In this document: positions 584 to 16,723 of the stretch, one piece after another | Layout of the letters: each line of letters begins with the position of its first letter | Numbering within the stretch: position 1 is the stretch's first letter | Virus record (IMG/VR): IMGVR_UViG_3300025129_000005 | Source: a virus | Taxonomy: Duplodnaviria; Caudoviricetes | Strand: one strand, 5' to 3' | DNA: 64,000 nucleotides | Position numbers and translations under genes: made by a program | The notes under the pieces: model-generated | The model's input: only the letters and a program-made list of their open reading frames with translations | Database searches by the model: none | Told to the model about the DNA's origin: nothing

Positions 584-604
584 TTAGTCTTTTATGATTT
601 ATAT

Positions 605-937: not shown

Positions 938-951
938 AATTTATGAATTTT

Positions 952-1029
952 GACCCATTACTCCACGATGGCAGAGAGAACACGTTTAGACCGTGTACAG
1001 GGAGAGTTCGACACTCGCATGGGCTACCA
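952..1029 (+). tRNA. tRNA-Leu(TAG), short variable loop, imperfect stems
   Basis: ACACG-TTTAGAC-CGTGT anticodon arm; mismatches in acceptor and T stems; CCA. Confidence 0.65.
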
Positions 1030-1037
1030 AAGTTTAA

Positions 1038-1109
1038 GCTCGTCGAAGGTCTGATGACCTAGTATCTCTTACAAAGAGACTGGATGGTTTGATTCCATGG
1101 CGAGTACCA
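1038..1109 (+). tRNA. tRNA-Val(TAC)-like with 4-nt D-loop
   Basis: GCTCGTC/GGCGAGT acceptor, loop CT-TAC-AA, D arm AGGTC-TGAT-GACCT, T-loop TTTGATT, CCA. Confidence 0.65.
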
Positions 1110-1115
1110 GTTAAA

Positions 1116-1191
1116 TCAGGAGTTAAGATAGAGGTAAATCGTGTTGGCTGTGACCCAGCAAACAAGGGTTCGAATTCCTTACTCCTGACCA
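1116..1191 (+). tRNA. tRNA-His(GTG) with U-1:A73
   Basis: 8-bp acceptor TCAGGAGT/ACTCCTGA, GTTGG-CTGTGAC-CCAGC anticodon arm, CCA. Confidence 0.9.
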
Positions 1192-1194
1192 TAA

Positions 1195-1268
1195 GCCGGA
1201 TTAGTTAAATGGTATAACTTCTGTTTTGTAATCAGAATTTGCGGGTTCGATTCCTGCATCCGGCTCCA
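1195..1268 (+). tRNA. tRNA-Thr(TGT)
   Basis: Canonical cloverleaf, loop TT-TGT-AA, CCA. Confidence 0.95.
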
Positions 1269-1281
1269 AGTTTAAAGTTTT

Positions 1282-1355
1282 GCGGGTATAGTTAAAAGGT
1301 ATAACTACAGCCTTCCAAGTTGTAATTGTCGGTTCGATTCCGTCTACCCGCTCCA
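1282..1355 (+). tRNA. tRNA-Gly(TCC)
   Basis: GCGGGTA/TACCCGC acceptor, U73, loop CT-TCC-AA, CCA. Confidence 0.95.
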
Positions 1356-1392
1356 ATACATAAGTTGTCAATATTTTAAATTGAATATAGTG

Positions 1393-1421
1393 TTGACATA
1401 GTTACATAAAGACTGTAGAAT
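1393..1421 (+). promoter_or_regulatory. sigma70-like promoter for the second half of the tRNA cluster
   Basis: TTGACA-17 nt-TAGAAT. Confidence 0.8.
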
Positions 1422-1447
1422 ACTGATTAGTTTGTTTGAGAATTTAA

Positions 1448-1532
1448 GCCCCTTGCCCCGACAACAGACTTCTAATCTGTTCCTTAAAAGTTGGATGGAA
1501 GGTACGAGGTTCGATTCCTCCAAGGGGTTCCA
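1448..1532 (+). tRNA. tRNA-Arg(TCT)-like, lacking a D arm, with a long variable region
   Basis: GCCCCTT/AAGGGGT acceptor, ACAGA-CTTCTAA-TCTGT, GAGG-TTCGATT-CCTC, CCA; only ~9 nt between acceptor and anticodon stems. Confidence 0.65.
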
Positions 1533-1545
1533 GAATATTAAATAT

Positions 1546-1620
1546 GCTCCTGTAATTCAATGGTAGAATAGGCGACTTATAATCGCTCTATAGTAGGTTC
1601 GAATCCTCTCAGGAGTACCA
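1546..1620 (+). tRNA. tRNA-Ile(TAT)
   Basis: Canonical cloverleaf, GGCGA-CTTATAA-TCGCT anticodon arm, CCA. Confidence 0.88.
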
Positions 1621-1628
1621 GTTTTATA

Positions 1629-1716
1629 GAGGAAGTCTGATAGGCGTCATCCCAAACCTCTTTAAAAAAGTCGTGGGTGTCCGTTCCCTAAGAAGGTATG
1701 GGAGGACGAACTTCTC
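1629..1716 (+). ncRNA. Candidate ~90-nt rod-like small RNA between tRNAs
   Basis: Nested pairings GGAAGT/ACTTCT, CGTC/GACG, TCCCA/TGGGA, ACCT/AGGT. Confidence 0.4.
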
Positions 1717-1760
1717 AAGTTTACAAATCGCTGAATATAGTGTATCATGTTTATATGTAT

Positions 1761-1836
1761 AGGGGTGTAGCGCAAAGGCAGAGGCATCAGGTTTAAGCCC
1801 TGATTAGTGGGAGTTCGAATCTCCTCACCCCTACCA
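1761..1836 (+). tRNA. tRNA-Leu(TAA), short variable loop
   Basis: AGGGGTG/CACCCCT, TCAGG-TTTAAGC-CCTGA, 5-nt variable loop, CCA. Confidence 0.85.
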
Positions 1837-1849
1837 ATTTTATAGTTAT

Positions 1850-1925
1850 GGGGGCGTAGCCAAGTGGAATGGCAACAGACTTTTAATCTGTATATCGGTG
1901 GGTTCGAATCCCCCCGCCCTCACCA
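1850..1925 (+). tRNA. tRNA-Lys(TTT)
   Basis: ACAGA-CTTTTAA-TCTGT anticodon arm, canonical T arm, CCA. Confidence 0.93.
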
Positions 1926-1940
1926 TTAGCGAGGTAATCT

Positions 1941-2295
1941 ATGGATGATAAACTACATACCTTAGAAATAACTGGCGGTGAAACGATAGAATTCAGAGAT
2001 AAATTATCTGGTTTTTTATCAAGAGCCACTCGGAACCTTTGAGCTTACGGATAAAGAAAAATATCTGCACAGTTTGGTTAAAGAGTACCACACCCGCTGC
2101 GAGGAATACGACAGGACGGTATGTACAGACCCGGTAGAGCGAGATGGGATTCTCCCCGCGAATGGTTTTGAGGTACGCCAAATCAACCTAAACGCCATAG
2201 AAGTGCGAAAAAATTTACAAGATCGAGCCTACAGAGAGCGTGGGATCTCGCCCGGCGAGGTGAGCAGAGCCATTTCGGACTACAGAGCCAGATAA
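1941..2295 (+). pseudogene. Hypothetical gene interrupted by an apparent +1 frameshift in a T6 run near 2012-2017
   Basis: SD GAGG plus ATG at 1941; removing one T joins MDDKLH...LSGF to YQEPLGTFEL...SDYRAR in a single ORF. Confidence 0.45.
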
Positions 2296-2484
2296 CCGGG
2301 TTGTCGTAGGTGAACCAACCATTAAAAAAGAAGCAAAAAAATGTTTAAGTTTTATGTTTACATACGGTAAACAAACTGGTATAGTGGTTAAGTAGTCACA
2401 ATCACCCATCACAGATAACCAAGAGAGATACTTGGTGTCCAGAGATAATATCAACGGGGTAAGGGATTGTGTCAAGTTCTTTGA

Positions 2485-2879
2485 CAATTGAAAGTAAAAA
2501 CGGTTGACGGAATAATGGTTGCATGACCATAACGTACCCTGATAGGGGTTGAAATACCCAAAAGCCCGATGCGGTATATCTAAAGGGAGTGGTTAGTAAC
2601 GTCATCCTGAACAATGAACAGAACAGACCGAGGTAACGTAACCTAGTGTGGTCGCAATAAGGTCAAGGTTCTGGTTCTCCTGCTGAAATCCACACGATAG
2701 CCTATTATAGAATCAATGCCAGTGGGAGTTGGGGGTAAGGAAATTCCCCTCATCCAATGAACCCTTCGGGGGAGGTAAACAATAGGACTTGCTACCCTAT
2801 TGGGATGTGTCAGAATGTTTGGGTTGTCGAGAAATCTTGGATGATTGATGTTGTCATTCACCGTTTTTACTTTCAATTG
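2485..2879 (+). ncRNA. Candidate ~395-nt structured RNA closed by a perfect 20-bp helix
   Basis: 2485-2504 is the exact reverse complement of 2860-2879; multiple internal helices and a possible pseudoknot; no credible ORF. Confidence 0.6.
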
Positions 2880-3735
2880 CTAAAGAGCAATAAGTTCTTT
2901 CAAAATCAGAATATGGTCGCTTGAGGTCATAGAAATAAACCACGGTAACGTGGGGAAAGGGATGTACTTCTATCAGTCTCCCGCCCTATAAAAGGGATAA
3001 TCAAGCAAGCCTCGTCTTCACCCGTAATGGGTGAGTTCATCTTACCAAGGGATGGACTTGAGTAAGGACGGTAGAGTAGGACAAATAAACCAATGGGTAA
3101 CTCTGGTTGGTTTATCTTTCGGGTGGTACCGAATTACTGCATACCAAATCTACTTAATTACAAAAGATAAGGGGTAATCAACTCAGTCCGAGAGTAGTGT
3201 CAAGGGCGGTTGGTAGTTCGATAGGGAACGGATACCTACGGTAGTAGGTGGACGGAATCTTGACAAACCATTGAGTACCAATACAAACGGGAAAGATACT
3301 AGGTGTGTGGTATTTCGTAGTCGCAAGATTATGAATCCACAGGGGTCACACATCTTCGATAGTTAATTGACAGCCCTTGAAAGCTGTTGATTATTGGTTC
3401 AAATCCAATATTAATACTCAAACGCAAAGTTGACCCCGCTGTATGATGAAAGTGGCTTAATCCCCAACATGTTATGTGAATTGGGGTACTCAAAACCCGC
3501 AAGGTGGAGAGTATTGATAGGGAGTCGCACTTAGGGTGTTCGCTACACACTAGGGTAGACAAAGTATTGAATAGTCATACAGGACAGTGTTAAAGCAGAC
3601 ACTTTAATAATGCAGTCACGTTGGGATACATGAATGAGTTTCATGTGGACACGTGAGGAACCAAAGGGAATAAGTCCCCTACGGATAATCTCACAAAAGT
3701 CTTGACAACGAAGGTCTTAGTCTCAAACCTTCATA
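2880..3735 (+). ncRNA. Large ornate ncRNA, GOLLD-like
   Basis: ~850 nt without a credible ORF inside a phage tRNA cluster; many hairpins with GNRA loops; embedded tRNA-like element; terminal hairpin GAAGGT/ACCTTC followed by an A/T-rich hairpin. Confidence 0.6.
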
Positions 3736-3829
3736 CTTTTTAAAAAAAAGTATACAATGATTTACAAAGTAAATAATAAGATACACTTTTCCTGATATCT
3801 CTAAGAGGTATGAGGAAAAGTGTATATTT

Positions 3830-3913
3830 GGCGGGTAGCGTCAAGGTGACAAAAGTGGCTTGAACCCACTGCCACGGTAAAACGTGAGAGTTCGATTCTT
3901 TTACCCGCCTCCA
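3830..3913 (+). tRNA. tRNA-Ser(TGA)
   Basis: AGTGG-CTTGAAC-CCACT, long variable arm, CCA. Confidence 0.9.
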
Positions 3914-3918
3914 TTCAC

Positions 3919-4008
3919 GGAAAGCTAATCAGTAAGGTACTGACACCACCTGCTAAGTGGCTGGTTCGTGGTAACACGGATGGATTTCGAATATCCAGCT
4001 TTCCTCCA
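3919..4008 (+). tRNA. tRNA-Ser(GCT)
   Basis: Loop CT-GCT-AA, long variable arm, GGAAAGC/GCTTTCC acceptor, CCA. Confidence 0.9.
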
Positions 4009-4026
4009 TTAAACATAAGGACTCTT

Positions 4027-4371
4027 ATGCCCCATCTAAATGAACATGAACAACAATCCATTGAACATTTTGGCAAATCATACACAGAGGTTCATCAATT
4101 CCTTGACCAATTTCAACCACAGTTTCGTGGACCAGAACACAGACGTATCCTTCACCATACAATGGGTGTAAACGAGGTTGTAAGACGTTTTGGTGAAGAA
4201 ACAAGATCAGTGGTCGAACTTCATATAAAAGAAGATTGGAAAGGGTATTGTGGAAGTCACTATGTCCCAACGTTAAAAGAAATCGACCTTGACAATTGGT
4301 TATTGCTTAATTATAATGTAAAGGAGTATATGGACAATTTAATGATGGAGTTGTATTCCGAAAAGCTGTGA
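4027..4371 (+). CDS. Hypothetical protein, His-rich (DUF6915-like)
   Basis: H..FLDQ, HRRILHH..G and LHIKEDW pattern; SD AAGGA. Confidence 0.55.
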   Translation: MPHLNEHEQQSIEHFGKSYTEVHQFLDQFQPQFRGPEHRRILHHTMGVNEVVRRFGEETRSVVELHIKEDWKGYCGSHYVPTLKEIDLDNWLLLNYNVKEYMDNLMMELYSEKL

Positions 4372-4544
4372 AGACATTATATAAAACTATTTCGTGGAGA
4401 TTTTTTGCAACATTTTTCACTTTTATTATATCTTTTGCGTTAACAGGATCAGTTGATATTGCATCCCAAATAACCACTCTAGAGTTTGTCGTGAAAATGT
4501 TGTTGTATTATATCCATGAGAAGGTGTGGGAGAAGGTCAGATGA
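4368..4544 (+). CDS. DUF2061-like small membrane protein (58 aa, not in ORF track)
   Basis: GTG start; KTISWRF...T...LTG.....A......K..LYY.HEKVW; stop overlaps the cysC ATG (ATGA). Confidence 0.7.
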   Translation: MKTLYKTISWRFFATFFTFIISFALTGSVDIASQITTLEFVVKMLLYYIHEKVWEKVR

Positions 4545-5452
4545 AATGTGTATGGTTAACCGGTCTACCCTGTTCAGGAAAGACCACAATTGCAAATGAA
4601 TTGAATAAAGTATTAACAAATTCGGTTGTATTGGATGGGGATGATCTAAGATCAACCTATTTAGGCAAAAATGTTGGATTTTCTCCACAAGATAGACATG
4701 ATCATATTTTAAGAATGGGTGAGATTGCAAAGCTTTTTGTTAAGACTGGTACATATGCCATTTGTTCATTCATATCACCAGAAGCTAAAGCAAGAGATAT
4801 GGTACGTGAATTGTTTAATGATGGTGATTTTATTGAGATTCATGTATCAGCGTCTAAGGATACATGTGCTGAACGTGATGTAAAGGGTATGTGGAAACGC
4901 GCCATGAATGGGGATATTACCCATTTCACAGGTTTTGATGCGCCTTATGAAGAACCGATTAATCCTGAGTATACAGCATTCACAGAGTTATCCACAATCA
5001 AAGAATGTGTAGATGATATTATTGATCTATTAAAACCTTATCACAAACCAGCATGTATGTTTATAGGTCGTTGGAATGGGATTTTCCATAATGGTCATGA
5101 TTATATTATTCGTAAGAAATTAGATGAAGGTAAATCCGTAACCCTTGCCATACGTGACGTGGCACCGGATAAAAACAACCCTTGGTCTGCTAAACAAGTC
5201 AAGGAAATGATTGATTATAGATTCAAGGACTATCCAGACGTAAAAACGATTATAATTCCAGATTTAGAATCTGTGGAGTACGGTCGTGGCGTTGGGTATG
5301 AAGTCAATGAGATTAAAGTTGATAAATATATTGCAGGTATCTCAGGAACAGAATGTAGAAAGATGATTTTAGAGGGTGATGATGATTGGAAACAGTTCGT
5401 ACCTGATGAGGTGGTTGAGTATTTAACAGACTATAATAAGAGGTTTACATGA
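4541..5452 (+). CDS. cysC: Adenylyl-sulfate kinase fused to a cytidylyltransferase-like (HxGH) domain
   Basis: WLTGLPCSGKTT, LDGDDLR, RDVKG, FTGFDAPYEEP; C-terminal GRW...FHNGH. Confidence 0.92.
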   Translation: MKCVWLTGLPCSGKTTIANELNKVLTNSVVLDGDDLRSTYLGKNVGFSPQDRHDHILRMGEIAKLFVKTGTYAICSFISPEAKARDMVRELFNDGDFIEIHVSASKDTCAERDVKGMWKRAMNGDITHFTGFDAPYEEPINPEYTAFTELSTIKECVDDIIDLLKPYHKPACMFIGRWNGIFHNGHDYIIRKKLDEGKSVTLAIRDVAPDKNNPWSAKQVKEMIDYRFKDYPDVKTIIIPDLESVEYGRGVGYEVNEIKVDKYIAGISGTECRKMILEGDDDWKQFVPDEVVEYLTDYNKRFT

Positions 5453-6033
5453 ATAATTTTGAAGAATTTAACGGATCTTTGTCTATATTAGAAAGTTTTG
5501 ACTTGAATAAAACATCGACACTATCAAAAAAAGTTACTCCTTCCCAGTTTTATACGATGATGACTGATTTGATGGATAATTCTGATTGGTCTGAACAAGA
5601 TTATAATGACGCTAGGGATGATTTAAAGAAGTCTATAGACTATATTAGGGGGTATACTTTCGTTGATAATGGCGAAATGTTCTTGGTTTTCTTTGTAAAG
5701 AATGTCAAAAACGAGATAGAAGTACATTTTATAAACGTTACACAGAATAGATTTAATGTTAAAACCCATACTCACGGTAAAACTTCACAGGTTGTTTTTG
5801 CTACGGTAGTTAAGACAACGTTGGACTTTTTGAAAACATCTGGTTATGATAAAATAAGAATTAGAACCGATACCGGAAGAGATAAACTCTATAAAAAAAT
5901 ACTTGATGTTGCCGTGGAAAAGTATCTAAGTGATTGGTCGTTTGTAAGCCGAGAGCAATCAGGTGATGACGTTTCTTTTTTGTACAAGAAAAGGGATAGA
6001 TTATTGGAAGGTCTAATTGGGAGATATACATGA
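5449..6033 (+). CDS. Hypothetical protein
   Basis: 194-aa ORF translationally coupled to both neighbours. Confidence 0.75.
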   Translation: MNNFEEFNGSLSILESFDLNKTSTLSKKVTPSQFYTMMTDLMDNSDWSEQDYNDARDDLKKSIDYIRGYTFVDNGEMFLVFFVKNVKNEIEVHFINVTQNRFNVKTHTHGKTSQVVFATVVKTTLDFLKTSGYDKIRIRTDTGRDKLYKKILDVAVEKYLSDWSFVSREQSGDDVSFLYKKRDRLLEGLIGRYT

Positions 6034-6683
6034 GTAGTGTTAAACTTGTTGCGATAACGAAACCTGTTATTGAAGAGTGTGAAACGGCAGAGGAATTGAT
6101 TGCTTATGTTGCAAGGGTATCAAACCCTAACAATCAAGCAAACCACAAAACTGCGGGGAAACTGTTGAAATATTGTGCTGATCACGCACATTGGTCGATC
6201 TTTGAAACTGCCAGTATGACCATGGAAATTAAATGTACCAGAGAAATTGGTAGGCAGATCATCCGTCACAAGTCATGCAAGTTTCAGGAATTCTCACAAA
6301 GGTATGCAGAGGTCACAGAGGATTCGTTTGAACTATCCGAGGCACGTCTACAGGACAAGAAGAACCGACAGAGTTCTATCGAAGTTCATGACAAAGGGCT
6401 ACAGGATTGGTGGACACTGAATCAAGCACGTCTTCGTGACAGTGCGGTCGAGCTATATCAAGCAGCCTTGGCAAAAGGTATCGCTAAAGAGGTCGCAAGG
6501 AAGGTTCTTCCTGAAGGGTTGACCAAAACGACATTGTACCTCACAGGGGATATACGCTCCTTTATCCACTATTGTATCCTACGTTGTGATGACGCAACAC
6601 AGAAGGAACATAGGGTGATAGCACAGGAAATCAAGGTTATCTTGTTGGAACAATTTCCGTCATTGACAGAATTGTTTGAATAG
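6030..6683 (+). CDS. thyX: FAD-dependent thymidylate synthase
   Basis: HWSIFE, RQIIRHKSCKFQEFSQRY, ARKVLPEG, HYCILRC...TQKEH. Confidence 0.95.
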   Translation: MSSVKLVAITKPVIEECETAEELIAYVARVSNPNNQANHKTAGKLLKYCADHAHWSIFETASMTMEIKCTREIGRQIIRHKSCKFQEFSQRYAEVTEDSFELSEARLQDKKNRQSSIEVHDKGLQDWWTLNQARLRDSAVELYQAALAKGIAKEVARKVLPEGLTKTTLYLTGDIRSFIHYCILRCDDATQKEHRVIAQEIKVILLEQFPSLTELFE

Positions 6684-6709
6684 GATAAGATTATAGTTAT
6701 AGAAATTGA

Positions 6710-6782
6710 AGCGGTGACAGTTGATACTGATGACACTCTCATAAGGTGTTCAGTAAGGGTTTGATTCCCTTCACCGCTACCA
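6710..6782 (+). tRNA. tRNA(CAT) with 4-nt D-loop (Met or Ile2)
   Basis: AGCGGTG/CACCGCT, D arm CAGT-TGAT-ACTG, ACACT-CTCATAA-GGTGT, T-loop TTTGATT, CCA. Confidence 0.75.
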
Positions 6783-7179
6783 AAATTAAAGGAAACTTAT
6801 GACATACGATGAATGGGCAGACGAAGTAGGAATCTTTAAGGATTCTGAAAGTCGTGAAGCATGGGATTATCAACAGAAACGGATTGATAAACTCGTAAAA
6901 CAGATACAGGATTTAGGTCAAGAAGGATATGATGATGTTTAAGTTTCGGAGAAAAAGGTCAAATTGTAACAAAAACCCATACAATTTCTTTGATGAATAC
7001 GAGAAACACTATTCGTGGGATATAGGGAGACAAACACGTGATAAGTAAAAAATTGAAGGAAATGACCTACAATGATTATGCGGCACTGTCTTTAGGTGAA
7101 GCGCAAGCATTGAAGCGAATGATTGACGCAGAACTTAAACGTCTGGAAGACACTATTGCAGATCTGAAAGCAAAGGCTA

Positions 7180-7863
7180 ATGAATAATTGGATTCGCATT
7201 AAAGATCAGAAACCCGAAGATGGACAAGATGTGTTCTATTTTTTCGATGTTTTGGGTGTTTATAAAGGCAGATATTTAAGAAAAGAGTATCCAAGGGAAA
7301 TGTTTGAAGAGGGTACTGAACCTGTATATGGTGACTGTTTCTACGGTAAGAAGGGGTTTCTGACTGATGACGTAACTCATTGGATGCCTGCGCCTACTGA
7401 TGGAGAATGGGATAAAGTGTTACCTGATGGTCCAGAGGATTATGTCAAGATTCATGATGGTCATTTTGATGGTTGGGCACACAAAGATAATGTCCTCATT
7501 GTCAGGAAAGACCGTTATGAGGGTATGAAAGCACAAATCAAATACCTTGAAGATGGTCACAAGACAGGTCTTGTATGTCCTGATGATGATTGTCCTTGTC
7601 ATATTTACTGGCAGGAAGAACACGATGGTTATCGTTGTGGGTGTTGCTTGAAGACCTATCCTACCGAAGAGGTAGAGAGTGGTCACCCGAAATACATTAG
7701 CAAGTATGAACGTCCTTGTCCTCACTGTAATCCTCATAAAGAGAACACGAAAGAGTTTTTTAAGAATGGGTTCTTGGTGTATACCGCAGGAGTGGAACCG
7801 TATATCACAGAACATTACGTCTGTGAAAAATGTTACAGTACATATTGTATAGAATCAATCTAA
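7180..7863 (+). CDS. Hypothetical protein: DUF551-like N-terminus, Cys-rich C-terminus
   Basis: WIRIKDQKPE...VTHWMP; several CxxC pairs. Confidence 0.7.
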   Translation: MNNWIRIKDQKPEDGQDVFYFFDVLGVYKGRYLRKEYPREMFEEGTEPVYGDCFYGKKGFLTDDVTHWMPAPTDGEWDKVLPDGPEDYVKIHDGHFDGWAHKDNVLIVRKDRYEGMKAQIKYLEDGHKTGLVCPDDDCPCHIYWQEEHDGYRCGCCLKTYPTEEVESGHPKYISKYERPCPHCNPHKENTKEFFKNGFLVYTAGVEPYITEHYVCEKCYSTYCIESI

Positions 7864-7957
7864 GGAAGTTTAACTAGATAGGATACTAGTCTTGATTGGA
7901 AATCAATGAGTTCGTGCTGATACCACGGATACGGTTCAAGTCCGTAACCTTCCTCCA
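7864..7957 (+). tRNA. tRNA-Ser(GGA)
   Basis: Loop TT-GGA-AA, long variable arm, TACGG-TTCAAGT-CCGTA, CCA. Confidence 0.82.
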
Positions 7958-8076
7958 TGTGAATATTGTGATGAATGTTTATAACGCACAACCACTGAAT
8001 GGTACAAGGGAATTATTAAAACATATCGAGCGTGATGTGTTGACGTAAATCTTTATCCGTAGAACAGGAGAAATAT

Positions 8077-8283
8077 ATGTCAAAATTGCAAAATTTTATT
8101 TTAGCACCAGATCAGATGAATGAAGCTGCTTATCACGGTAATATCGGTTTTGAGGAAATGGTCAAGTTTTACGGTAAAGCTACCAAAGCAGAGATAATTA
8201 AAATGGAATTATTTATTAAAGAAAACGATTGGGACGGATTTAAATCAATTATTAAAAAGGTGGTTGGAGTTGCATTAAAATAA
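8077..8283 (+). CDS. Hypothetical protein
   Basis: SD AGGAG plus ATG. Confidence 0.7.
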   Translation: MSKLQNFILAPDQMNEAAYHGNIGFEEMVKFYGKATKAEIIKMELFIKENDWDGFKSIIKKVVGVALK

Positions 8284-8300
8284 TTCATAATATTATTTAC

Positions 8301-8376
8301 GGGCCTTTAGTTCAGTTGGTAGAACCCCCGGCTCATAACCGGGTTGTCGTAGGTTCGAATCCTGCAGGGCCCACCA
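8301..8376 (+). tRNA. tRNA(CAT), Ile2 (lysidine)-type body
   Basis: GGGCCTT/AGGGCCC acceptor and CTCATAA loop, resembling bacterial tRNA-Ile2. Confidence 0.85.
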
Positions 8377-8474
8377 TAAATAAAATAACTATCTAAATGT
8401 AGGTAGATGTATAGTGATATCGGGTATCAAACAGTGTTAAATAAAGGTAACACTAACACAAAGGAGATTTGTTT

Positions 8475-8768
8475 ATGAAAAAAGTATTGTTAATCGTTTT
8501 AATGTTGTTCTGTGCAAGCTTCGCTTATGCGGAATTAGGTTCACCAAATTTCACCAAGGTCTATCCGACCAGCAAGGGTGAAGTTACATTCAATCACTTG
8601 TCTCATTCAGTGAAAGGTGACAGTTGTGACGCCTGTCATGAGTGGGTCAATCAGTTCACCGAAGTTGGAATGAATAAGGATGTTGGTCACAAGGTTTGTA
8701 AAGTTTGTCATAAGGCAGATAAAACCAAGACCGCCCCGACTATTTGTACTGGATGCCATAAAAAATGA
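8475..8768 (+). CDS. Periplasmic triheme cytochrome c7 (PpcA-like), copy 1
   Basis: Signal peptide ending AYA; FNHLSH; CDACH; GH..CKVCH; CTGCH. Confidence 0.88.
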   Translation: MKKVLLIVLMLFCASFAYAELGSPNFTKVYPTSKGEVTFNHLSHSVKGDSCDACHEWVNQFTEVGMNKDVGHKVCKVCHKADKTKTAPTICTGCHKK

Positions 8769-9028
8769 AAAAAATAATTATGACTCTGTTGTTGGTATTG
8801 ATATCAGAGTTTTGTTTTTCCTCAACAATATCGACAAAAAGGGGTCCTGTGGATTTTCCACATCAACCTCACACGTCAATAATGGGGTGTATGACTTGTC
8901 ATAACCCTCATGGTGGTATGATGGGTGGGTTTGGTGCCGCAGAAAGAACTCATGCGTTTTGTCAGTCGTGTCATGACCCGAACTTATTACCAGATAAGTG
9001 TAAATTTTGTCATAAACCAAAAAAGTAA
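8765..9028 (+). CDS. Periplasmic triheme cytochrome c7 (PpcA-like), copy 2
   Basis: Signal peptide; FPHQPH; CMTCH; TH..CQSCH; CKFCH. Confidence 0.88.
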   Translation: MKKIIMTLLLVLISEFCFSSTISTKRGPVDFPHQPHTSIMGCMTCHNPHGGMMGGFGAAERTHAFCQSCHDPNLLPDKCKFCHKPKK

Positions 9029-9036
9029 TATAAATA
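9029..9036 (+). promoter_or_regulatory. T4-type late promoter (endolysin)
   Basis: TATAAATA. The same motif occurs at 10998, 11913, 14877, 18748, 27560, 29889, 30524, 37688, 46815 and on the minus strand at 45224-45231. Confidence 0.75.
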
Positions 9037-9063
9037 CCTTCGATGTGTAATTGGAGGTAGAAT

Positions 9064-9642
9064 ATGAGTTACTTTTGGGATGCGTATGCAATAACAATGT
9101 CACATGAGGGTGGATACTCATTTGATGAAGATGATGTTGGTGGTGAGACATATAAGGGAATTTCTAGGGTATACAACCCATCTTGGATAGGTTGGGATCA
9201 CATTGATTATGTGAGATCCAATTTCGATTTTCCAAAGTGTCTTGAATTTTCTGAAACTTTACAAGAAGATGTTAAACGGTATTATAAAGAGAGGTACTTT
9301 GACCCATATTGTGGCGATGATATGCCTAAAATGTTGGCTTTGGAGATGTTTGATACCAGTGTTAACATGGGGGTAGGTCGTGCGGTAAAGTTTATGCAAA
9401 TCGGGTTAAACGTTCTTAATAGAAACGGCGAACTGTATCCAGATATGGTTGTTGATGGTGGATATGGATCAACAACACATAAATATCTTTATACATATTT
9501 ACAAACTGATAGTGAAGAATTACTATGTAAGATAATAAATATTTTACAAGGTAATCACTATATTGAATATATGACAAAATCTCCCAAACAGGAGAAGTAT
9601 GCTCGTGGTTGGTTCAATAGAGTGGATATTAGAAAACGATGA
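9064..9642 (+). CDS. Glycoside hydrolase family 108 endolysin with peptidoglycan-binding C-terminus
   Basis: HEGGY...D.GGETYKGI; FDTSVNMG; Q..LN; C-terminal GWFNR. Confidence 0.88.
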   Translation: MSYFWDAYAITMSHEGGYSFDEDDVGGETYKGISRVYNPSWIGWDHIDYVRSNFDFPKCLEFSETLQEDVKRYYKERYFDPYCGDDMPKMLALEMFDTSVNMGVGRAVKFMQIGLNVLNRNGELYPDMVVDGGYGSTTHKYLYTYLQTDSEELLCKIINILQGNHYIEYMTKSPKQEKYARGWFNRVDIRKR

Positions 9643-9664
9643 AGGTGGGAGAAAATAGGGAATA

Positions 9665-10309
9665 ATGGGAATCAGAGAACATTTAATAGGCGAAGAGTTT
9701 GCAAGATGTGATATTAACGCACTTAATGAATCTTCGTTGTCAAGGGTTTGGAGACAGACCCAAGAACACGATTCTGGTACTATATCTGCATATCGTGACG
9801 CAAGAGATTGTGGGGATGGTGTGAAGTATACGAAATCCGAGAAACAGAAGAGAAACAATATTCTGGCATCCAGACTAGAAAGAATGGGATATGGTATCAC
9901 TAAGATTAAAGGTACTTATATAGAGAATTATGGTTCAGATAATGAAGTACCTGTTAAAGAGGAATCATTTCTTGTTATTGATTTGAAGGACAAAGGAACA
10001 TTAAAAAATGATTTGATATCTTTAGGTACAGAGTTCGACCAAGACTCCATTACTTATAGTAAGTCATCTGGCGAATACTACATCATTTCTACTAATGAAT
10101 GTCCTAATGGGTATCCCGGTAACGGTAGAATTGGTGTTGAGAATAAACTAGGAAAGTCAATGTTCGGCAAGAAAGGTGAGTTTTATTCAAAAGTTAACGG
10201 TAGACCTTTCGTGTTTGAGTCAATCCAGAATAGGATTAGAACGATACTTGACCACACTCCGACAGAAATGCGATCAGTTAGACATTTTTCTGAACAAAAA
10301 GTTGAATAA
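9665..10309 (+). CDS. Conserved phage protein, paralogue A
   Basis: ESSLSR..., G.ISAYR, G.Y.E, E.SF.V, QDSI. Confidence 0.8.
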   Translation: MGIREHLIGEEFARCDINALNESSLSRVWRQTQEHDSGTISAYRDARDCGDGVKYTKSEKQKRNNILASRLERMGYGITKIKGTYIENYGSDNEVPVKEESFLVIDLKDKGTLKNDLISLGTEFDQDSITYSKSSGEYYIISTNECPNGYPGNGRIGVENKLGKSMFGKKGEFYSKVNGRPFVFESIQNRIRTILDHTPTEMRSVRHFSEQKVE

Positions 10310-10328
10310 TAAACCAATAGGCAAATCA

Positions 10329-10967
10329 ATGGGAATTAGAGAATATCTGATAGAGAGTTCATTGAGTAGATTATGGAAACATAATGAAGAACACGATTGT
10401 GGTGGAATTACTGCGTTTAGGTTATACACTAATTGTGGATATATGGATAACAAACAACCATGTTACCCCGATAAACCGCCTGTGAGGATAACAAGAAAAG
10501 AAAATGACAAGAGAAATAAGGCACTCATGGCAGACCTCATAAAAATGGGGTATAAAGGTGCCACAAAACTTGTCGGGTCTTATCTTGAGGGTGGTGTTTC
10601 TACAAAGGAGATATCATTCTTTGTGGTCGATTTTGACAATAAAGGTACTCTTGAGAATGACTTGATTCGTCTTGGTAAAAAGTATGAACAAGATACTATT
10701 CTGTTTGTACCAAAAGGGTCAATCCAGAACAAAGATAAAGCTTATTTGGTTGGTACTAATAATTGTCCTAATAATGACACAAAAATAGGACAAAAGATGA
10801 TATTTAATAGAGGTAAAGTTGGATATGATTCACCATTTTACACATCACGTGTTAACGGTAGACCTTTGATATTCGAAGGAATTGAATTATATGAAGGATT
10901 GGGGTTTAGTTCGGGTTCTAATGCAATGATGGCTGGAAGATATGCGGAAGAATATGAAAAAAAATGA
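10329..10967 (+). CDS. Conserved phage protein, paralogue B
   Basis: Tandem paralogue of 9665-10309 (MGIRE..I, ESSLSR, SRVNGRP..FE); likely ATG at 10329. Confidence 0.8.
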   Translation: MGIREYLIESSLSRLWKHNEEHDCGGITAFRLYTNCGYMDNKQPCYPDKPPVRITRKENDKRNKALMADLIKMGYKGATKLVGSYLEGGVSTKEISFFVVDFDNKGTLENDLIRLGKKYEQDTILFVPKGSIQNKDKAYLVGTNNCPNNDTKIGQKMIFNRGKVGYDSPFYTSRVNGRPLIFEGIELYEGLGFSSGSNAMMAGRYAEEYEKK

Positions 10968-11065
10968 TTAATTTTTATTAATAATTTGTTTTTGTGATAT
11001 AAATAGTGTTAGGGAAGACCTCTGCCGAATCTCGCTTAAATCTAAAGGAGATGGAGGTGCTTATT

Positions 11066-11506
11066 ATGAGAAAAGACCTTATGCCAGTAGGACGAATTAA
11101 CCAATTGTCCATGTTTAACGATTTTGAGAGGATTTTTGATCACGTATTTGGCAACGTGGCTCCCCTCACTCAGCAAAATAGTTATCCTGTATGCAACGTT
11201 TTTGTTGATAAGGATGAGGTATTGAACTTTGAGTTCGCTTTAGCTGGGTTCAAAAAAGAAGAAGTTGTCGCAGAAGTTGAGGACAATGTTCTGACTGTAA
11301 AGGCAGAGAAGTTGACCGATGAGACAGACAACAAGTACATCATCAGAAAGTTTGCGAGACGTTCTTTCACAAAGCAGTATAATTTAGGTGATTTTCATGA
11401 TCCAGATACTGCACAAGCAAAGTTTGAAGATGGTGTTCTTACAGTGACCTTCGCTAAGAAGGTTCTGGAACAACCAGAAACTAAAGTCAAGAGACTAGAA
11501 ATCTAA
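11066..11506 (+). CDS. Hsp20/alpha-crystallin small heat-shock protein
   Basis: YPVCNV, EFALAGFKKEEV, RRSFTKQY, A.FEDGVLTV; SD GGAGGT. Confidence 0.93.
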   Translation: MRKDLMPVGRINQLSMFNDFERIFDHVFGNVAPLTQQNSYPVCNVFVDKDEVLNFEFALAGFKKEEVVAEVEDNVLTVKAEKLTDETDNKYIIRKFARRSFTKQYNLGDFHDPDTAQAKFEDGVLTVTFAKKVLEQPETKVKRLEI

Positions 11507-11705
11507 GGAGTTCCAGAGGTCTTCCCTACAATTAATATTTATAACACCTATTTCCGGGGTATTCTTCGGGACACTAAACACTAAATCAGATGTAATATGT
11601 GTGAAAAGGTCAATCTCTTGGCAAATGGCAAACTTGACAAGACAGTGTTGATATGATATTTTATGGTTAAATCAATATAATGGCAAACTGAAAGGGATTT
11701 ATAAT

Positions 11706-11897
11706 ATGAAATATCCTTATTGTGACTACAAAGATGGCTGGGATAGTAAAAACCTAAAAGTGGTTGAAGGTGATTCCGGTGAGTTATTTACTCTGTCCAA
11801 TGATATTAAAGCAGAAAGAACTTACGAGAGTGGATATTTAAGACGTGAGACTGTTTACTTTTGCCCTGAATGTGGTAAGCCTTTTATTGATGTGTAG
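11706..11897 (+). CDS. Small Zn-ribbon hypothetical protein
   Basis: YPYC...CPECG. Confidence 0.6.
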   Translation: MKYPYCDYKDGWDSKNLKVVEGDSGELFTLSNDIKAERTYESGYLRRETVYFCPECGKPFIDV

Positions 11898-11950
11898 TGC
11901 ATTATTCAAAGATATAAATAAAAGAACAAGCAGCAAAAATAAAATAAAGT

Positions 11951-12142
11951 GTGAGGTGTAGTATGTCAATTGCAGCATTTGGTGTTCCAGTTTTTAATTC
12001 TCAAGGAAATTCAAGAAAACCACCCATTATTGTCGGGGAAATTAATGATAAACTTAGACAATTAGGAGTTTCATCTCAAGATGTTATAACAATTCAAGTG
12101 GAGCAGGACTTTTATCACGTATTTTATCGTAAATCCGACTAA
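11951..12142 (+). CDS. Small hypothetical protein downstream of a late promoter
   Basis: ORF followed by a terminator-like hairpin at ~12150-12200. Confidence 0.6.
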   Translation: MRCSMSIAAFGVPVFNSQGNSRKPPIIVGEINDKLRQLGVSSQDVITIQVEQDFYHVFYRKSD

Positions 12143-12299
12143 ATGCAAAAAAGCACATACCCCCCATTGTACCAGATGTGGGGGGTGTAGCTATTTTTTG
12201 TCTATATTAAGTTAACACCTTTACTTATAATATACTTTTATTATTATAATAAAGGATAAATTTATTCAATTTTAGTGGTGTTAATATAAAGGAGAACTT

Positions 12300-13025
12300 A
12301 TGTCTGATGAGCAAGAAATAGATATATCAAATTTAAAACAATATCTTGACTCTGATCATCCATTGTTAAATAAATTTAAAAGTGCTGCACCGGGGACGTT
12401 TAGGCACTCAATGAACATTGCTGATTTATCGGAATCAGTTGTATCTGATCTTGGTCTAGATGCCACCCTTATGAGAGTGTGTGCATACTATCATGATATT
12501 GGTAAGATGATGAATCCTAAATATTTCACCGAAAATCAAAATGGTGAAGGAAACCCTCATGATAATCTTGAACCGCATATTTCATATCAGTTAATAACAC
12601 GACATGTATCAGATAGTTTGTTAATATTAATCAATGAGACTGATATGCCTAAAAATGTTCTTGAAATTATATCAGAACATCACGGGGATTGTTTGTTGAA
12701 ATCGATATTCAAAAAATCATCAAGTAAAAGTGAAGATTCTTTCAGGTATAGATGTAAGAAACCATCAAACGAATATTCATCCATCCTAATGATTGTTGAT
12801 GCAGTAGAGGCAACCGCTCGTTCTGTTGCTGATAAATTAATCACACCCGAAGCAAAGAAAAAAGTTGTCAAGGATACAATTGATAGATTAAGGGATGATC
12901 AACAATTAGATGAAATGAAGGTTGGAACTTTAAGACAGGTGCAGCAGAGATTGACGCGAGAACTGGACGGGATATATCATACTCGTTTGGATTATGATGA
13001 AGAATTAAAAATGGAAGAAAAATGA
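12300..13025 (+). CDS. Soluble HD-domain phosphodiesterase resembling the catalytic domain of PgpH/7TM-HD proteins
   Basis: APGTFRHS, AYYHDIGK..NP.YF.ENQ, NPHD, EHHG, MIVDAVEA; no transmembrane region. Confidence 0.85.
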   Translation: MSDEQEIDISNLKQYLDSDHPLLNKFKSAAPGTFRHSMNIADLSESVVSDLGLDATLMRVCAYYHDIGKMMNPKYFTENQNGEGNPHDNLEPHISYQLITRHVSDSLLILINETDMPKNVLEIISEHHGDCLLKSIFKKSSSKSEDSFRYRCKKPSNEYSSILMIVDAVEATARSVADKLITPEAKKKVVKDTIDRLRDDQQLDEMKVGTLRQVQQRLTRELDGIYHTRLDYDEELKMEEK

Positions 13026-13171
13026 ATTATTTTGAACACATGAGGGCCAATTTTAAAGTATCTTTTCGTTGCTTCATGTTGATGATTTTTCATTGTATGC
13101 ATGGTTTGATACCAATAAAATGGACAAGTCATGAGTTTTGGAAATTTTAAATAAAAATAAGGAGAATTTGT

Positions 13172-13387
13172 ATGGAACCAGAAATGGTAAAATGTGGTAA
13201 CTGTGAGAGTGAGGCATGGAACGAGATTATCATGTTTGCTAAGGTGTCAGCTGTGGTTAGTCAGACAGGTAAAGCGGGGATTGCTCCTGTAGGAAGTACT
13301 TATATTTGTATGAATTGTGGTACCAGTATTGAAGAATCCGATGCAGTAAAATCGTTATCCGATAAAGAATCGACCTTGATTGTTTAA
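13172..13387 (+). CDS. Small Zn-finger hypothetical protein
   Basis: CGNC...CMNCG. Confidence 0.65.
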   Translation: MEPEMVKCGNCESEAWNEIIMFAKVSAVVSQTGKAGIAPVGSTYICMNCGTSIEESDAVKSLSDKESTLIV

Positions 13388-13431
13388 GGTTTTTGTGATA
13401 CTATTTAGTTGAGGTCGGGATAGAGGAGTCT

Positions 13432-13962
13432 ATGATGGTACTTAGGGCAAAAAAATTCGCATTAAAGGCTCATGAGGGCGATACATACGGGAAAAACTAT
13501 CCCTACTCTAAACATTTGAATGATGTTTACAACGTTTTGGTGACATTTGGAGTCTTTGATGAAAAGGTTCTCATGGTAGCATGGTTACATGACACCATTG
13601 AGGATACAATGGTTGTTTTTGAGGACATAGAAGGTGAGTTTGGTACTCAAATAGCAAATCTAACTTATCTGTTGACCGATAAACAGGGAAAGAATCGTAA
13701 GGAACGGCAAGGACTAACATATCCCTTATTGGCAGAAGATCATTATGCAAGGTTGGTAAAACTTGCTGATCGTATTGTTAACGTCACTATGACAATGCAT
13801 GATAGCCAAGAAAAATTTGGTATGTATGCCAAAGAATTTCCTTATTTTATGGAAACCTTTATACCTAAAATGAAACCCGCTGATGAATATCATGACGTTG
13901 AAGTTCATATGTGGGAACATCTTAAAAAATTGATGGTGGTTGGACCTTTTATCGAATACTAA
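13432..13962 (+). CDS. RelA/SpoT-type HD hydrolase (small alarmone hydrolase-like)
   Basis: KAH.G...YPY..H, LHDTIEDT, LVKLADRIVN. Confidence 0.82.
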   Translation: MMVLRAKKFALKAHEGDTYGKNYPYSKHLNDVYNVLVTFGVFDEKVLMVAWLHDTIEDTMVVFEDIEGEFGTQIANLTYLLTDKQGKNRKERQGLTYPLLAEDHYARLVKLADRIVNVTMTMHDSQEKFGMYAKEFPYFMETFIPKMKPADEYHDVEVHMWEHLKKLMVVGPFIEY

Positions 13963-14046
13963 ATTTTACCCTTGACGTTGACATAAATGCCGTGGTACAA
14001 TTCCTTGTAATGAGGTTCTATCACGGCTTTTTTATTGGAGGAAGTT

Positions 14047-14250
14047 ATGAAACGGAGATATTTTTTCGAAGAAACGAAAGGACTCAAGGCTGACATTAAA
14101 CGTCACCGTGAGACTGAGCAAGAACTGCGTGACAAGATTTCCGAATCCGAGGCAAACGATCAAGAAGCATTCGCCCGTTCCTATCGTAACCTTCTGGACA
14201 TTCTTCTGTGTTCCAAAGCACAAGTTGTTGGTAAGATTGGAAAAAAATAA
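14047..14250 (+). CDS. Hypothetical protein
   Basis: SD GGAGG upstream of ATG. Confidence 0.6.
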   Translation: MKRRYFFEETKGLKADIKRHRETEQELRDKISESEANDQEAFARSYRNLLDILLCSKAQVVGKIGKK

Positions 14251-14308
14251 CTAAAGAGAATGGAGTGTTCTTTGGGTCATTACTCTAAAGATAGGGTATA
14301 TAAAAATC

Positions 14309-14881
14309 ATGGTTGAGTGTTTTTTTAGTTCTGATCATCATCTATTCCACACGAATATTATCAAGTATTGCAACCGAACCTTTGCTAATTTGGATGAAAT
14401 GCACCAGTTTGGTATTGAAGAGTGGAATAGTGTAGTAACACCTAATGATATTGTTATCCATTTGGGTGACTATATCTGTGGTGGTACGAAAGAACAAATT
14501 ACCGAAATTACCCAACAATTGAATGGAACGAAGATTCTCATTATGGGTAACCATGACCGTAAAGGAAAACAATGGTTCTTGGATGTAGGATTTACACGTG
14601 TATTCAAACACAGGTGGTCAATGGGTATGTACTGTTTCAGTCACAGACCCCAAGAAGCCGAGTATTTGACTGCCCTTGGAGTACGATATAATCTACATGG
14701 TCATTCCCATAAACATGATTACGGTGACCCATATTACAATTTCGGGGTTGATGTAGTGGGTTGGAGACCAAAGAAAGTGAAATTAAATTTAGAAAAGGAT
14801 GATTTATTAAATGGCGAAGGTATAACCGCCCCTGATGAGTTGATTGACTATAAACACGGTAAGAAAAGGAACTATGTATAA
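14309..14881 (+). CDS. Calcineurin-like metallophosphoesterase
   Basis: SDHH..H, HLGD, GNHD, HGHSH. Confidence 0.9.
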   Translation: MVECFFSSDHHLFHTNIIKYCNRTFANLDEMHQFGIEEWNSVVTPNDIVIHLGDYICGGTKEQITEITQQLNGTKILIMGNHDRKGKQWFLDVGFTRVFKHRWSMGMYCFSHRPQEAEYLTALGVRYNLHGHSHKHDYGDPYYNFGVDVVGWRPKKVKLNLEKDDLLNGEGITAPDELIDYKHGKKRNYV

Positions 14882-14889
14882 ATACAGGT

Positions 14890-15567
14890 ATGGATATCTT
14901 TGACTATGAACATACAGGTATAATTTACAGGGTCACTAACTTGACCAATGGTAAACTATATGTGGGTCAGACCACCAGACCACTACGCCAGAGGTATAGT
15001 CAACATAGAAGGTTTAAGAATGGCACGTTGTATCCTGTCATACAGAAGTATTCAGACGAAGAGTTGTTGTGGGAAATAGTTTGTGAGTGTTCTAATATTG
15101 ATGACCTGAATTATTGTGAGGATTTTATAATAAGACGATATGTGTCTGATGGATATACCTTATACAATAGAACCGTTGGTGGTGGTCTTAATGCAGAACA
15201 TACCGATGAGGTTAAAAAGAGGATAAGTGATTCGTTGAAGGGTAGGTTTACTGGTGAAGACAATTCCATGTATGGATGTATAGGTGCCTATCATGGAAAA
15301 TCTCTATCAGAAGAACATAGAAGGAAGATGAGTGAATCCCATAAGGGTAAACCATTAACCAATGAACACAGAGCATTGATAAGTGATGGTATGAAATATT
15401 CGTATTCTGTTTACTTTGATGATGGAAGTGTGAGAGAATACATAAATGCCGACCAGAGGGATATTTGTAAAGAAATTGGACTTGGTTCAGCGGTAACGTT
15501 CCGTTCCTTTTTTGGTGACAGAAAACCCTTTAAAGGTATAGTAAAGATAGAAAAAATGAAATTGTGA
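14890..15567 (+). mobile_element. Free-standing GIY-YIG homing endonuclease with NUMOD3-like repeats
   Basis: IIYRVTNLTNGKLYVGQT; YN...GG; HT.E.KKRIS, SEEHRRKMSESHKGK; late promoter immediately upstream. Confidence 0.88.
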
Positions 15568-15575
15568 GGTAGTAT

Positions 15576-15875
15576 ATGGCAAAGGTAAACTTAAGTGTCA
15601 CAAGGACGCTTACTATAAACACGGGAAATTACGAAAGTATTAAACCATCGGTAACATTAACTGTTGTTGATGTTGACCCTGATAATGTGAGTGATGCCTA
15701 TTTAGCAGTAGAAGAGGCAATCAGCGGTTTAATTAAGATGGAAATCTTGAATTGTTATAGTGATGGGAAGAAATTAAGCGAAGGAATTGATCGATATTGT
15801 CGTGACGTTAACAATAATATGGCAGAAATTGGTACAAACATTGAGAAATCTCTTCATGAACTGAGCAAATTTTAA
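15576..15875 (+). CDS. Hypothetical protein
   Basis: SD GAGG plus ATG. Confidence 0.7.
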   Translation: MAKVNLSVTRTLTINTGNYESIKPSVTLTVVDVDPDNVSDAYLAVEEAISGLIKMEILNCYSDGKKLSEGIDRYCRDVNNNMAEIGTNIEKSLHELSKF

Positions 15876-15911
15876 TAAATAAAAGAAATATGTTAAAACA
15901 GGAGAACGTTT

Positions 15912-16184
15912 ATGCCCCGTTGCGTAAAATGTGATAAATATTTTCATCCAGATTTCAGTGTTTTAATGGAACCGAACACCGGAAGCAAGGCATGCAAATG
16001 TGTATTTTGTTATACAGAAAAAAATGAAGTAACTGTTGCCAGTGAAGAAACAGGTAAACCAGACTATGTAGTAACCAAACAACAAGCAATTGAAAATTAC
16101 AGAGTTTATATTGCAAAATTAAAAGATGATCCGAAAGTTGCAAAAGTGTTAACCGGAAATGAATCAAATAAATTTTCTATATAG
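15912..16184 (+). CDS. Zn-binding hypothetical protein
   Basis: CVKC...CVFC; SD AGGAG. Confidence 0.7.
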   Translation: MPRCVKCDKYFHPDFSVLMEPNTGSKACKCVFCYTEKNEVTVASEETGKPDYVVTKQQAIENYRVYIAKLKDDPKVAKVLTGNESNKFSI

Positions 16185-16204
16185 AAGGATAGGTGGTGTG
16201 AAAA

Positions 16205-16723
16205 ATGGAACCAGTGATTGTGCTTAATGCAGATTATTCATTCCTAAGTGTTACTTCATGGCAAAATGCTATTTGTCTTTTGTATGAAGGAAAGGCTCAT
16301 CCCGTTGAAGAATCAGACCGAGTTGTACGTAATTTTGACGGAACAGTTAAAATGATTGTTCCTATGATGATTCGTGTGATTACGTATATTCGTAAAAGAT
16401 TTGGTCAAAGTGTGCCGTACTCAAAAAGAAATGTTTTTATGAGAGATGACCAAACCTGTCAATTCTGTGGGACATATATTGAATATGAATCAGATTGTAC
16501 TATCGATCATGTGATACCTAAATCAAGAGGAGGAAAGTCAACTTTTGAGAATTGCGTTACTGCATGTAAACCTTGTAATCATAGGAAAGCTGACCGCTTA
16601 TGCTCTGAATCCAAAATGTTTTTGAGACGAAAGCCATTTAGACCTACGATTGGGGAATATGTTCAATATTGGACTAAAAAGTATAGAATTCATGAAAGGA
16701 TTGAAATGTCAATGAAAGATTGA
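16205..16723 (+). CDS. HNH endonuclease
   Basis: RD..TCQFCG, TIDHVIPKSRGG...N.V.ACKPCN..K. Confidence 0.9.
   Translation: MEPVIVLNADYSFLSVTSWQNAICLLYEGKAHPVEESDRVVRNFDGTVKMIVPMMIRVITYIRKRFGQSVPYSKRNVFMRDDQTCQFCGTYIEYESDCTIDHVIPKSRGGKSTFENCVTACKPCNHRKADRLCSESKMFLRRKPFRPTIGEYVQYWTKKYRIHERIEMSMKD

Follow-up and report, generated by a model that had tools for sequence, protein, structure and literature searches.

In aquifers, the redox chemistry of iron and uranium is driven by metal-reducing bacteria, whose main periplasmic electron shuttles are triheme cytochromes c7. Among phages, small electron carriers are familiar from T4-like cyanophages, whose auxiliary metabolic genes (AMGs) include petE for plastocyanin and petF for ferredoxin; both are presumed to sustain host electron transport in infection. 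Other multiheme proteins are the NapC/NirT family of membrane-anchored tetraheme quinol dehydrogenases and the cytochromes of Borgs, large extrachromosomal elements of Methanoperedens; the Borg cytochromes are large and contain many hemes. These multiheme cytochromes of a mobile element are linked to extracellular electron transfer. The nearest phage precedent, reported in a 2026 preprint, is a NapC/NirT multiheme cytochrome in amoC-phages. Solved structures of c7 proteins include those of Desulfuromonas acetoxidans c7 and of PpcA–E from Geobacter sulfurreducens (PDB 1hh5/1new, 1os6, 3bxu, 3h33, 3h4n, 3h34).

Here we describe two adjacent genes for small c7 cytochromes, Cyt1 and Cyt2, in a 64,000-nucleotide stretch of viral DNA, referred to as the window, whose positions provide all coordinates unless another contig is named. 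Like the NapC/NirT gene of the amoC-phages (155–338 kb), they encode multiheme c-type cytochromes read as auxiliary metabolic genes. However, the amoC-phage gene is highly similar to that of the predicted host, whereas the phage c7s are very diverged from the cellular genes found; they are also predicted to be soluble trihemes and form a phage clade of their own. With petE and petF they have in common that they are small soluble redox carriers of large T4-like phages, retained across a lineage. The cyanophage proteins, by contrast, have different folds with copper or iron–sulfur cofactors and serve photosynthesis, whereas the c7s carry motifs for three c-type hemes, which need covalent attachment by the periplasmic maturation system of the host, and would serve anaerobic respiratory chains. 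As in Borgs, multiheme cytochromes reside on a mobile element, but Borgs are archaeal and non-viral, and the proteins described here would be small shuttles in a lytic-type phage. A tblastn search of 50,697 GenBank phage records recovered no Cyt1 homologue, and blastn of positions 7000–12000 against GenBank phages returned tRNAs only. Neither protein matched a PHROG family, and we found no earlier literature report of a phage c7. All of this, with a single preprint as precedent, fits the claim, made earlier from the sequence alone, that multiheme cytochromes are rarely reported in phages.

The window derives from a large phage with a uniformly low GC content (36% overall). It encodes a T4-type replication set, with a family B DNA polymerase (PolB, 55322–57685), a clamp loader, a gp32-like SSB, a primase, DnaB-like and other helicases and a ribonucleotide reductase, together with an array of 15 tRNA genes predicted by ARAGORN (372–8376). 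The last of these, a plus-strand tRNA-Met (CAU, 8301..8376), lies just upstream of the cytochrome cassette. The upstream neighbour of the cassette among protein-coding genes specifies a conserved 68-residue cytoplasmic protein (8077..8283, plus strand) that matched no Pfam or PHROG family; homologues of 64–68 residues are encoded directly upstream of the cassette in three of the related phages introduced below (L010, L013 and L018). Directly downstream of the cassette, 35 nt beyond Cyt2, is an endolysin gene with GH108 and PG_binding_3 domains (9064..9642, plus strand; Pfam E 6e-21 and 1e-10). Two tandem genes of the S-adenosylmethionine (SAM) lyase family follow (PF23780; 9665–10309 and approximately 10329–10967), which probably serve anti-restriction; this pairing is kept in related phages. 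Several host-like genes also lie near the cassette, namely those for an APS kinase with an N-terminal extension (4526–5452), ThyX (6030–6683), HSP20 (11006–11506) and a protein with an HD_4 (RelA/SpoT-type hydrolase) domain (13432–13962).

The location of the cytochrome genes is reproducible across assemblies. A protein 99% identical to Cyt1 is found, with identical neighbours, on at least 20 contigs of up to approximately 216 kb from JGI, Logan and ENA assemblies, and over the 554-bp cytochrome locus these contigs differ from the window at one base, which leads to K83E in Cyt1. The stretch is present in 24 public runs from 21 studies labelled as aquifer, cold spring and hot springs. The cytochrome genes have 38–40% GC, and both their GC and GC3 values are phage-like, inside the range of other phage genes. 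They sit within a bona fide phage genome with phage genes on both sides. The sequence-only reading had taken the pair to be phage-encoded, and the T4-type module, the 15 tRNA genes and the synteny on at least 20 contigs as well as in divergent phages support it in this; the one-base difference among contigs from three assembly sources and the phage-like GC exclude a chimeric assembly. More broadly, we regard it as highly improbable that the cassette is a piece of host DNA joined to a phage contig by mis-assembly, or that it was acquired recently and has no function. Cyt2 is indeed rare, with two homologues found, and junction artefacts do happen at its A-rich start: a 1.25-kb JGI contig (L008) matches the window base for base as far as the start of Cyt2 (ATGAAAAAAATAATTAT) and then, after Cyt1, carries a YbeY-like ORF (957–1250 of that contig) that has no counterpart in the window. 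This contig is probably a short-contig chimera formed at the A-rich stretch, and possibly a variant. Against an artefact or passenger stand the constant arrangement on the contigs from all three sources, the phage-like composition of both genes, the synteny kept among phages with c7s of 43–65% identity in which every heme residue is intact, and the nearest cellular genes found, which are 40–42% identical and reside on contigs of approximately 50–52% GC.

Cyt1 (8475..8768, plus strand) encodes a predicted exported triheme cytochrome c7 of 97 residues with a signal peptide at approximately residues 1–19, and Cyt2 (8765..9028, plus strand) encodes a predicted exported triheme c7-like cytochrome of 87 residues; the two genes overlap by the four nucleotides ATGA (8765–8768). 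For Cyt1, we prefer the ATG at 8475 over the TTG at 8469 that would give the longest ORF, because the Shine–Dalgarno sequence AAAGGAG lies 8–14 nt upstream of the ATG. Inspected by eye, both N-termini have the form of signal peptides—MKK followed by a hydrophobic stretch—with a cleavage-type site AYA|E in Cyt1 and a weaker one, CFS|S, in Cyt2, for which the homologue P0007 has AFS|S. The CxxCH motifs of Cyt1 are CDACH (C51–H55), CKVCH (C75–H79) and CTGCH (C91–H95), and its distal histidines are H41 and H44, in the motif F39-x-H41-x-x-H44, and H72, three residues before the second CxxCH. Cyt2 has CMTCH (C42–H46), CQSCH (C66–H70) and CKFCH (C79–H83), with distal histidines H33 and H36 in F31-x-H33-x-x-H36 and H63 again three residues before the second CxxCH. 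The features first noted by eye in the two ORFs, that is, signal peptides, three CxxCH motifs and distal histidines in c7 spacing, are hence confirmed. A six-frame scan of the 64-kb window for ORFs of at least 40 residues found CxxCH in Cyt1 and Cyt2 only, three motifs in each, and the 12 heme-binding residues (6 Cys, 6 His) are invariant both among 25 Cyt1-type sequences and among 30 c7 sequences aligned with Cyt2; the motifs are thus not a product of chance. Residues 46–54 of Cyt2 (8900–8925) contain an extra histidine (His49) and a Met-rich loop, CHNPHGGMMGG, which is kept as CHMSHGGGMMG in P0007, the sole distant Cyt2 homologue found; on the basis of its residues, this loop may bind a metal or provide an alternative ligand.

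Profile, sequence and model comparisons all place the two proteins with the cytochromes c7. Cyt1 scores 30.0 bits against Pfam PF14522 (cytochrome c7), above the gathering threshold of 24.8, and phmmer aligns it over its full length to c7 chains in the PDB (E 2e-9). Cyt2 reaches 17.4 bits against PF14522, below the threshold, and passes that of PF09699 (Paired_CXXCH_1; 27.5 versus 20.6); its full-length phmmer matches in the PDB are 19 solved c7 chains, PpcA included (E 2.5e-8 to 6e-5). The solved proteins matched by both, at E values of approximately 1e-9 to 1e-7, are D. acetoxidans c7 and Geobacter PpcA–E. AlphaFold2 models, built heme-free, have pLDDT values of 83 for Cyt1 and 79.5 for Cyt2, and both predict the c7 fold. 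In Foldseek searches of the PDB, the top matches of the Cyt1 model are all c7 (target-normalized TM 0.67–0.78), as are the best 19 of the Cyt2 model; for the two models together, the top matches are PpcA–E or D. acetoxidans c7 with probabilities of 0.89–1.00 and target-normalized TM values of 0.59–0.78. Neighbours of Cyt2 in the ESM Atlas belong to c7/c3 clusters, mostly from Thermodesulfobacteriota. In both proteins, the three CxxCH motifs and three distal histidines have the order and spacing of c7 proteins, which would give hemes I, III and IV bis-His ligation, and the ligand residues align with the FPHKAH and CxxCH motifs of PpcA. Despite its sub-threshold PF14522 score, sequence matches and the predicted model place Cyt2 in the c7 fold class.

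Membership in the family does not extend to PpcA itself. Against the NCBIfam equivalog NF043011 (CytC7_Geobact), Cyt1 and Cyt2 align across the whole 89-position model, but with scores of 58.6 and 44.3 bits they stay far under the cutoff of 120, and we reject PpcA orthology for both. Of the earlier description as PpcA-type triheme c7 cytochromes, the c7 part stands by sequence and predicted fold, and the PpcA part does not. Identity to solved c7s is approximately 30–42%, and Cyt2 is only approximately 30–37% identical to any of the cellular c7s retrieved. Phylogenetic trees put Cyt1 outside the PpcA-like group and Cyt2 beside PpcA-like rows on a very long branch. Nor does the word tandem denote a recent duplication: Cyt1 and Cyt2 are 26% identical and fall into different parts of the tree, and we reject this origin. 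In common with PpcA–E and D. acetoxidans c7, both have a signal peptide and a mature part of approximately 70–80 residues, with CxxCH motifs and distal histidines that follow one another in like order and at like distances, the N-terminal F-x-H-x-x-H and the predicted fold (target-normalized TM 0.62–0.78). Unlike PpcA–E, Cyt1 has an N-terminal extension of approximately eight residues with an NFTKxY motif, common to its phage clade and one Desulfuromonadales subfamily; in Cyt2, unlike PpcA, a His- and Met-rich loop replaces the Lys-rich GGKIxGFGK loop. Unlike the c7 genes of Geobacter and Desulfuromonas, those of Cyt1 and Cyt2 belong to a virus of 36% GC. Owing to the identity of only approximately 30–42% and the sub-cutoff PpcA equivalog scores, redox properties and partners may differ from those of the characterized c7s.

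When 1.84 billion representative proteins were searched with a profile, 846 matched at E ≤0.001, and the best approximately 30 of these group with Cyt1 in a tree. For the top matches of this group, the genomic contexts that were read are all phage-like, with 28–43% GC. To the question whether the proteins are host-derived or form a phage clade in relation to PpcA–E, the tree answers for Cyt1 by grouping it with phage rows; its backbone has low resolution, which is to be expected with proteins of approximately 90 residues. The sequences indicate that Cyt1 belongs to a separate, mostly phage-borne c7 subfamily. Cyt1-type c7s occur in ten phage lineages—the window, L010, L011, L012, L013, L018/L019, L020, L021, L041 and the P0014 contig—with identities of 43–65%, and the heme residues are intact in all ten. 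Since synteny is conserved at this level of divergence and the heme residues remain intact, the c7 has been kept long-term in a diverging phage lineage.

The GH108 endolysin gene follows that of c7, either immediately or after one intervening gene, in eight of the ten lineages, counting the window (seven of nine without it). The order is 68-residue protein, c7 and endolysin in L010; c7, Cyt2 homologue, endolysin and SAM lyase in L011; c7 and endolysin in L012; a 64-residue protein, c7, endolysin and SAM lyase-like genes in L013, an IMG/VR contig; and monoheme cytochrome, c7, endolysin and SAM lyase in L018/L019. On the P0014 contig, genes for DUF6915 and ThyX precede, at some distance, c7, one further gene and the endolysin, and in L041 ThyX likewise precedes c7 and endolysin. 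The cytochrome of the remaining two lineages has a neighbourhood that differs from the endolysin site, with monoheme cytochrome, c7 and a PAAR-like spike-tip protein in L020 and with c7, one gene and the PAAR-like protein in L021. The latter protein has 97 residues and is encoded directly after c7 in L020 (5009–5302) and one gene on in L021 (950–1243). Cyt2 is an accessory partner, found only in the phage of the window and in L011: its homologues are P0006 (99% identity) and P0007 (56–61%, from phage L011), and scans of metagenome contigs and viral contigs gave no others. In L018 (7674–7991) and L020 (4376–4693), the gene directly before c7 instead specifies a predicted exported monoheme cytochrome c of 105 residues with a single CKICH and a weak match to PF13442 (class I type). 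The cytochrome slot is therefore modular, the second cytochrome being absent, a c7 or a monoheme protein. Small multiheme cytochromes on viral contigs are not confined to these phages: an unrelated contig (L014, IMG/VR UViG 3300033146_001603) independently encodes, at 5905–6246 and not beside an endolysin, a 113-residue tetraheme c3/TmcA-like cytochrome whose signal (IGASC) is of the lipoprotein type.

The conserved adjacency to the endolysin could mean that the cytochromes have a lysis-related rather than a metabolic role. They would then signal the redox or energy status of the envelope and adjust holin or endolysin timing or lysis inhibition, as part of a redox-linked control of lysis or infection state. 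T4 RI is a small periplasmic protein, and Cyt1 and Cyt2, small and by prediction periplasmic, resemble it; in L010, L013 and L018, moreover, c7 and endolysin are separated by 4–12 nt and may be co-transcribed. We nevertheless consider lysis control unlikely. The c7 genes of L020 and L021 do not lie beside an endolysin, no holin or antiholin partner was identified, and the adjacency may be simple inherited synteny, because the T4 lysozyme gene, too, is located near a tRNA cluster in a plastic region. The four closest lineages, furthermore, have a T4-type late-promoter motif for the endolysin and a different element for the cassette, as follows.

Upstream of the first cytochrome gene, a promoter-like element with a ribosome-binding site spans 8414..8464 on the plus strand: GTGATA (8414–8419) is followed, after a 17-nt spacer, by TTAAAT (8437–8442) and then AAAGGAG, and a palindrome, GTGTTA..TAACAC (8434–8453), overlaps the TTAAAT. 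An element of this kind precedes the first cytochrome gene in seven lineages, the window included, namely L010 (9960–10000), L011 (770–820), L012 (1520–1570), L013 (5950–6000), L018 (7625–7673) and L041 (3940–4000). Its shared form consists of a TTACA-like hexamer, 17 nt, TTAAAT, the palindrome GTGTTA..TAACAC and AAAGGAG, and it is conserved although the encoded c7s are only 43–65% identical. Within the window, the motif occurs once. A consensus promoter scanner did not call the 8414..8464 element; judged by eye, it could be a dedicated sigma-70-like promoter with an operator. A conserved RNA hairpin at this site is not supported, as the palindrome is out of register in L013 and L018.

Cyt2 and the endolysin gene are 35 nt apart, and between them lies TATAAATA (9029..9036, plus strand), the T4-type late-promoter consensus. 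In the window, L011, L012 and L041, an exact copy of TATAAATA is located 27–30 nt upstream of the endolysin ATG. Across the window there are 18 copies, compared with 8.9 expected, a number reached in 0 of 100 shuffles; this excess suggests that T4-type late promoters operate in this distant lineage. The sites often lie 8–40 nt upstream of gene starts, for example, at 9029, 10998, 11913, 14877, 27560 and 37688. From the conserved sigma-70-like element before the cassette and the late-promoter motif before the endolysin, we infer separate control, in which a promoter of host or middle type would drive the cytochromes and a late one the endolysin.

The nearest cellular relatives found belong to three metagenome-assembled genomes (MAGs) assigned to Desulfuromonadales or 'delta proteobacterium', with 40–42% identity and five or six c7 matches per MAG. 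Their contigs have 50–52% GC, with ordinary cellular neighbours around the c7 gene in the two denoted L015 and L016, and in the tree this cellular type clusters with P0025, P0030, P0044 and P0051, separately from the nine known phage rows. Sequence relationships thus seem to trace the ancestry of the c7 gene to Thermodesulfobacteriota, and the identity of 40–42% to proteins of Desulfuromonadales MAGs bespeaks an old gene origin, not the present host; the Desulfuromonadia host proposed from the sequence alone is no more than a candidate. A DNA search of positions 8377–28376 against 401 genomes of the class of the Desulfuromonadales MAG gave no spacer-like match and returned only short motif-level similarities, such as CHNPHGG in an octaheme protein; the tRNA region matched tRNA-Met of that class with 84–87% identity, which holds no host information. 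Phage relatives provide no host either, because PolB is less than 31% identical to those of cultured T4-like phages. In the tRNA array, eight of the 15 genes have U at the wobble position, suited to A-ending codons, one is tRNA-Ile (UAU) and three have CAU anticodons; such an array fits an AT-rich phage in a GC-richer host. By our analysis, the 36% GC of the phage is not evidence against a host of approximately 50–55% GC, since the GC contents of T4 and Escherichia coli differ by as much.

In our judgement, Cyt1 and Cyt2 are probably auxiliary metabolic genes that supply soluble periplasmic electron carriers. The case for this role comes from the c7 family assignment, the predicted export signals, the conserved ligands and the long persistence of the genes in phages, and also from the interchangeability of Geobacter c7s: these periplasmic carriers are reportedly abundant and largely interchangeable, so that even a diverged phage c7 could plug into the network of a host. 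In the mechanism that we propose, Cyt1 and Cyt2 would be expressed from the promoter of the cassette, apart from the late endolysin promoter, and exported through the Sec pathway as small cytochromes. The cytochrome c maturation system of the host would attach three bis-His c-type hemes to each, in a c7-like fold; no ccm or ccs genes were seen among the large ORFs of the 64-kb window. The phage cytochromes would then join or replace the host pool of soluble periplasmic multiheme carriers and pass electrons from quinol oxidoreductases of the inner membrane to acceptors in the periplasm or outer membrane. Respiration and ATP supply of an energy-limited, anaerobic host would thereby be maintained or raised while a T4-like phage of approximately 216 kb replicates. 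No RNA runs with the cytochrome genes were among the public runs listed. What speaks against the carrier role is that there is no obvious need to replace stable periplasmic cytochromes during infection.

Heme proteins of the periplasm may also act in ways other than as carriers. c7 proteins reduce chelates of Fe(III), U(VI) and Cr(VI) in vitro, and the phage proteins might directly reduce or detoxify soluble metals or oxidants, store electrons, sequester heme or iron, or interfere with receptor cytochromes and so act against superinfection. The intact ligands and the predicted c7 fold are compatible with any of these, the extra histidine and Met-rich loop that Cyt2 shares with P0007 could bind metal, and surface cytochromes can be used as phage receptors, for example, OmcA of Shewanella, which is mentioned in this capacity in a preprint. 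Such roles nevertheless appear improbable to us: the locus has no specific pointer to any of them, and a variable second cytochrome—none, c7 or monoheme—fits a general carrier better than a specific inhibitor.

We therefore return to the electron-carrier reading and to what it would mean for the phages. Phage AMGs for electron transport are well known in photosynthesis and hardly known in anaerobic respiration. It is conceivable, and we propose it tentatively, that deep-branching large T4-like phages have long carried a cytochrome family of their own, in a modular slot with a dedicated promoter, and use it to reroute electrons through the periplasm of hosts whose respiration relies on metals or on electron exchange with the environment. 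If true, viruses would possess a takeover module for anaerobic or extracellular respiration, the first of its kind, and with it a direct way to influence the redox cycling of iron, uranium and sulfur in the subsurface. The phage c7s also offer small, diverged natural variants for studying redox tuning and partner specificity in multiheme carriers. A clade-wide phage c7 in aquifer and spring metagenomes would mean that infection can directly alter the respiratory hardware of metal-reducing bacteria.
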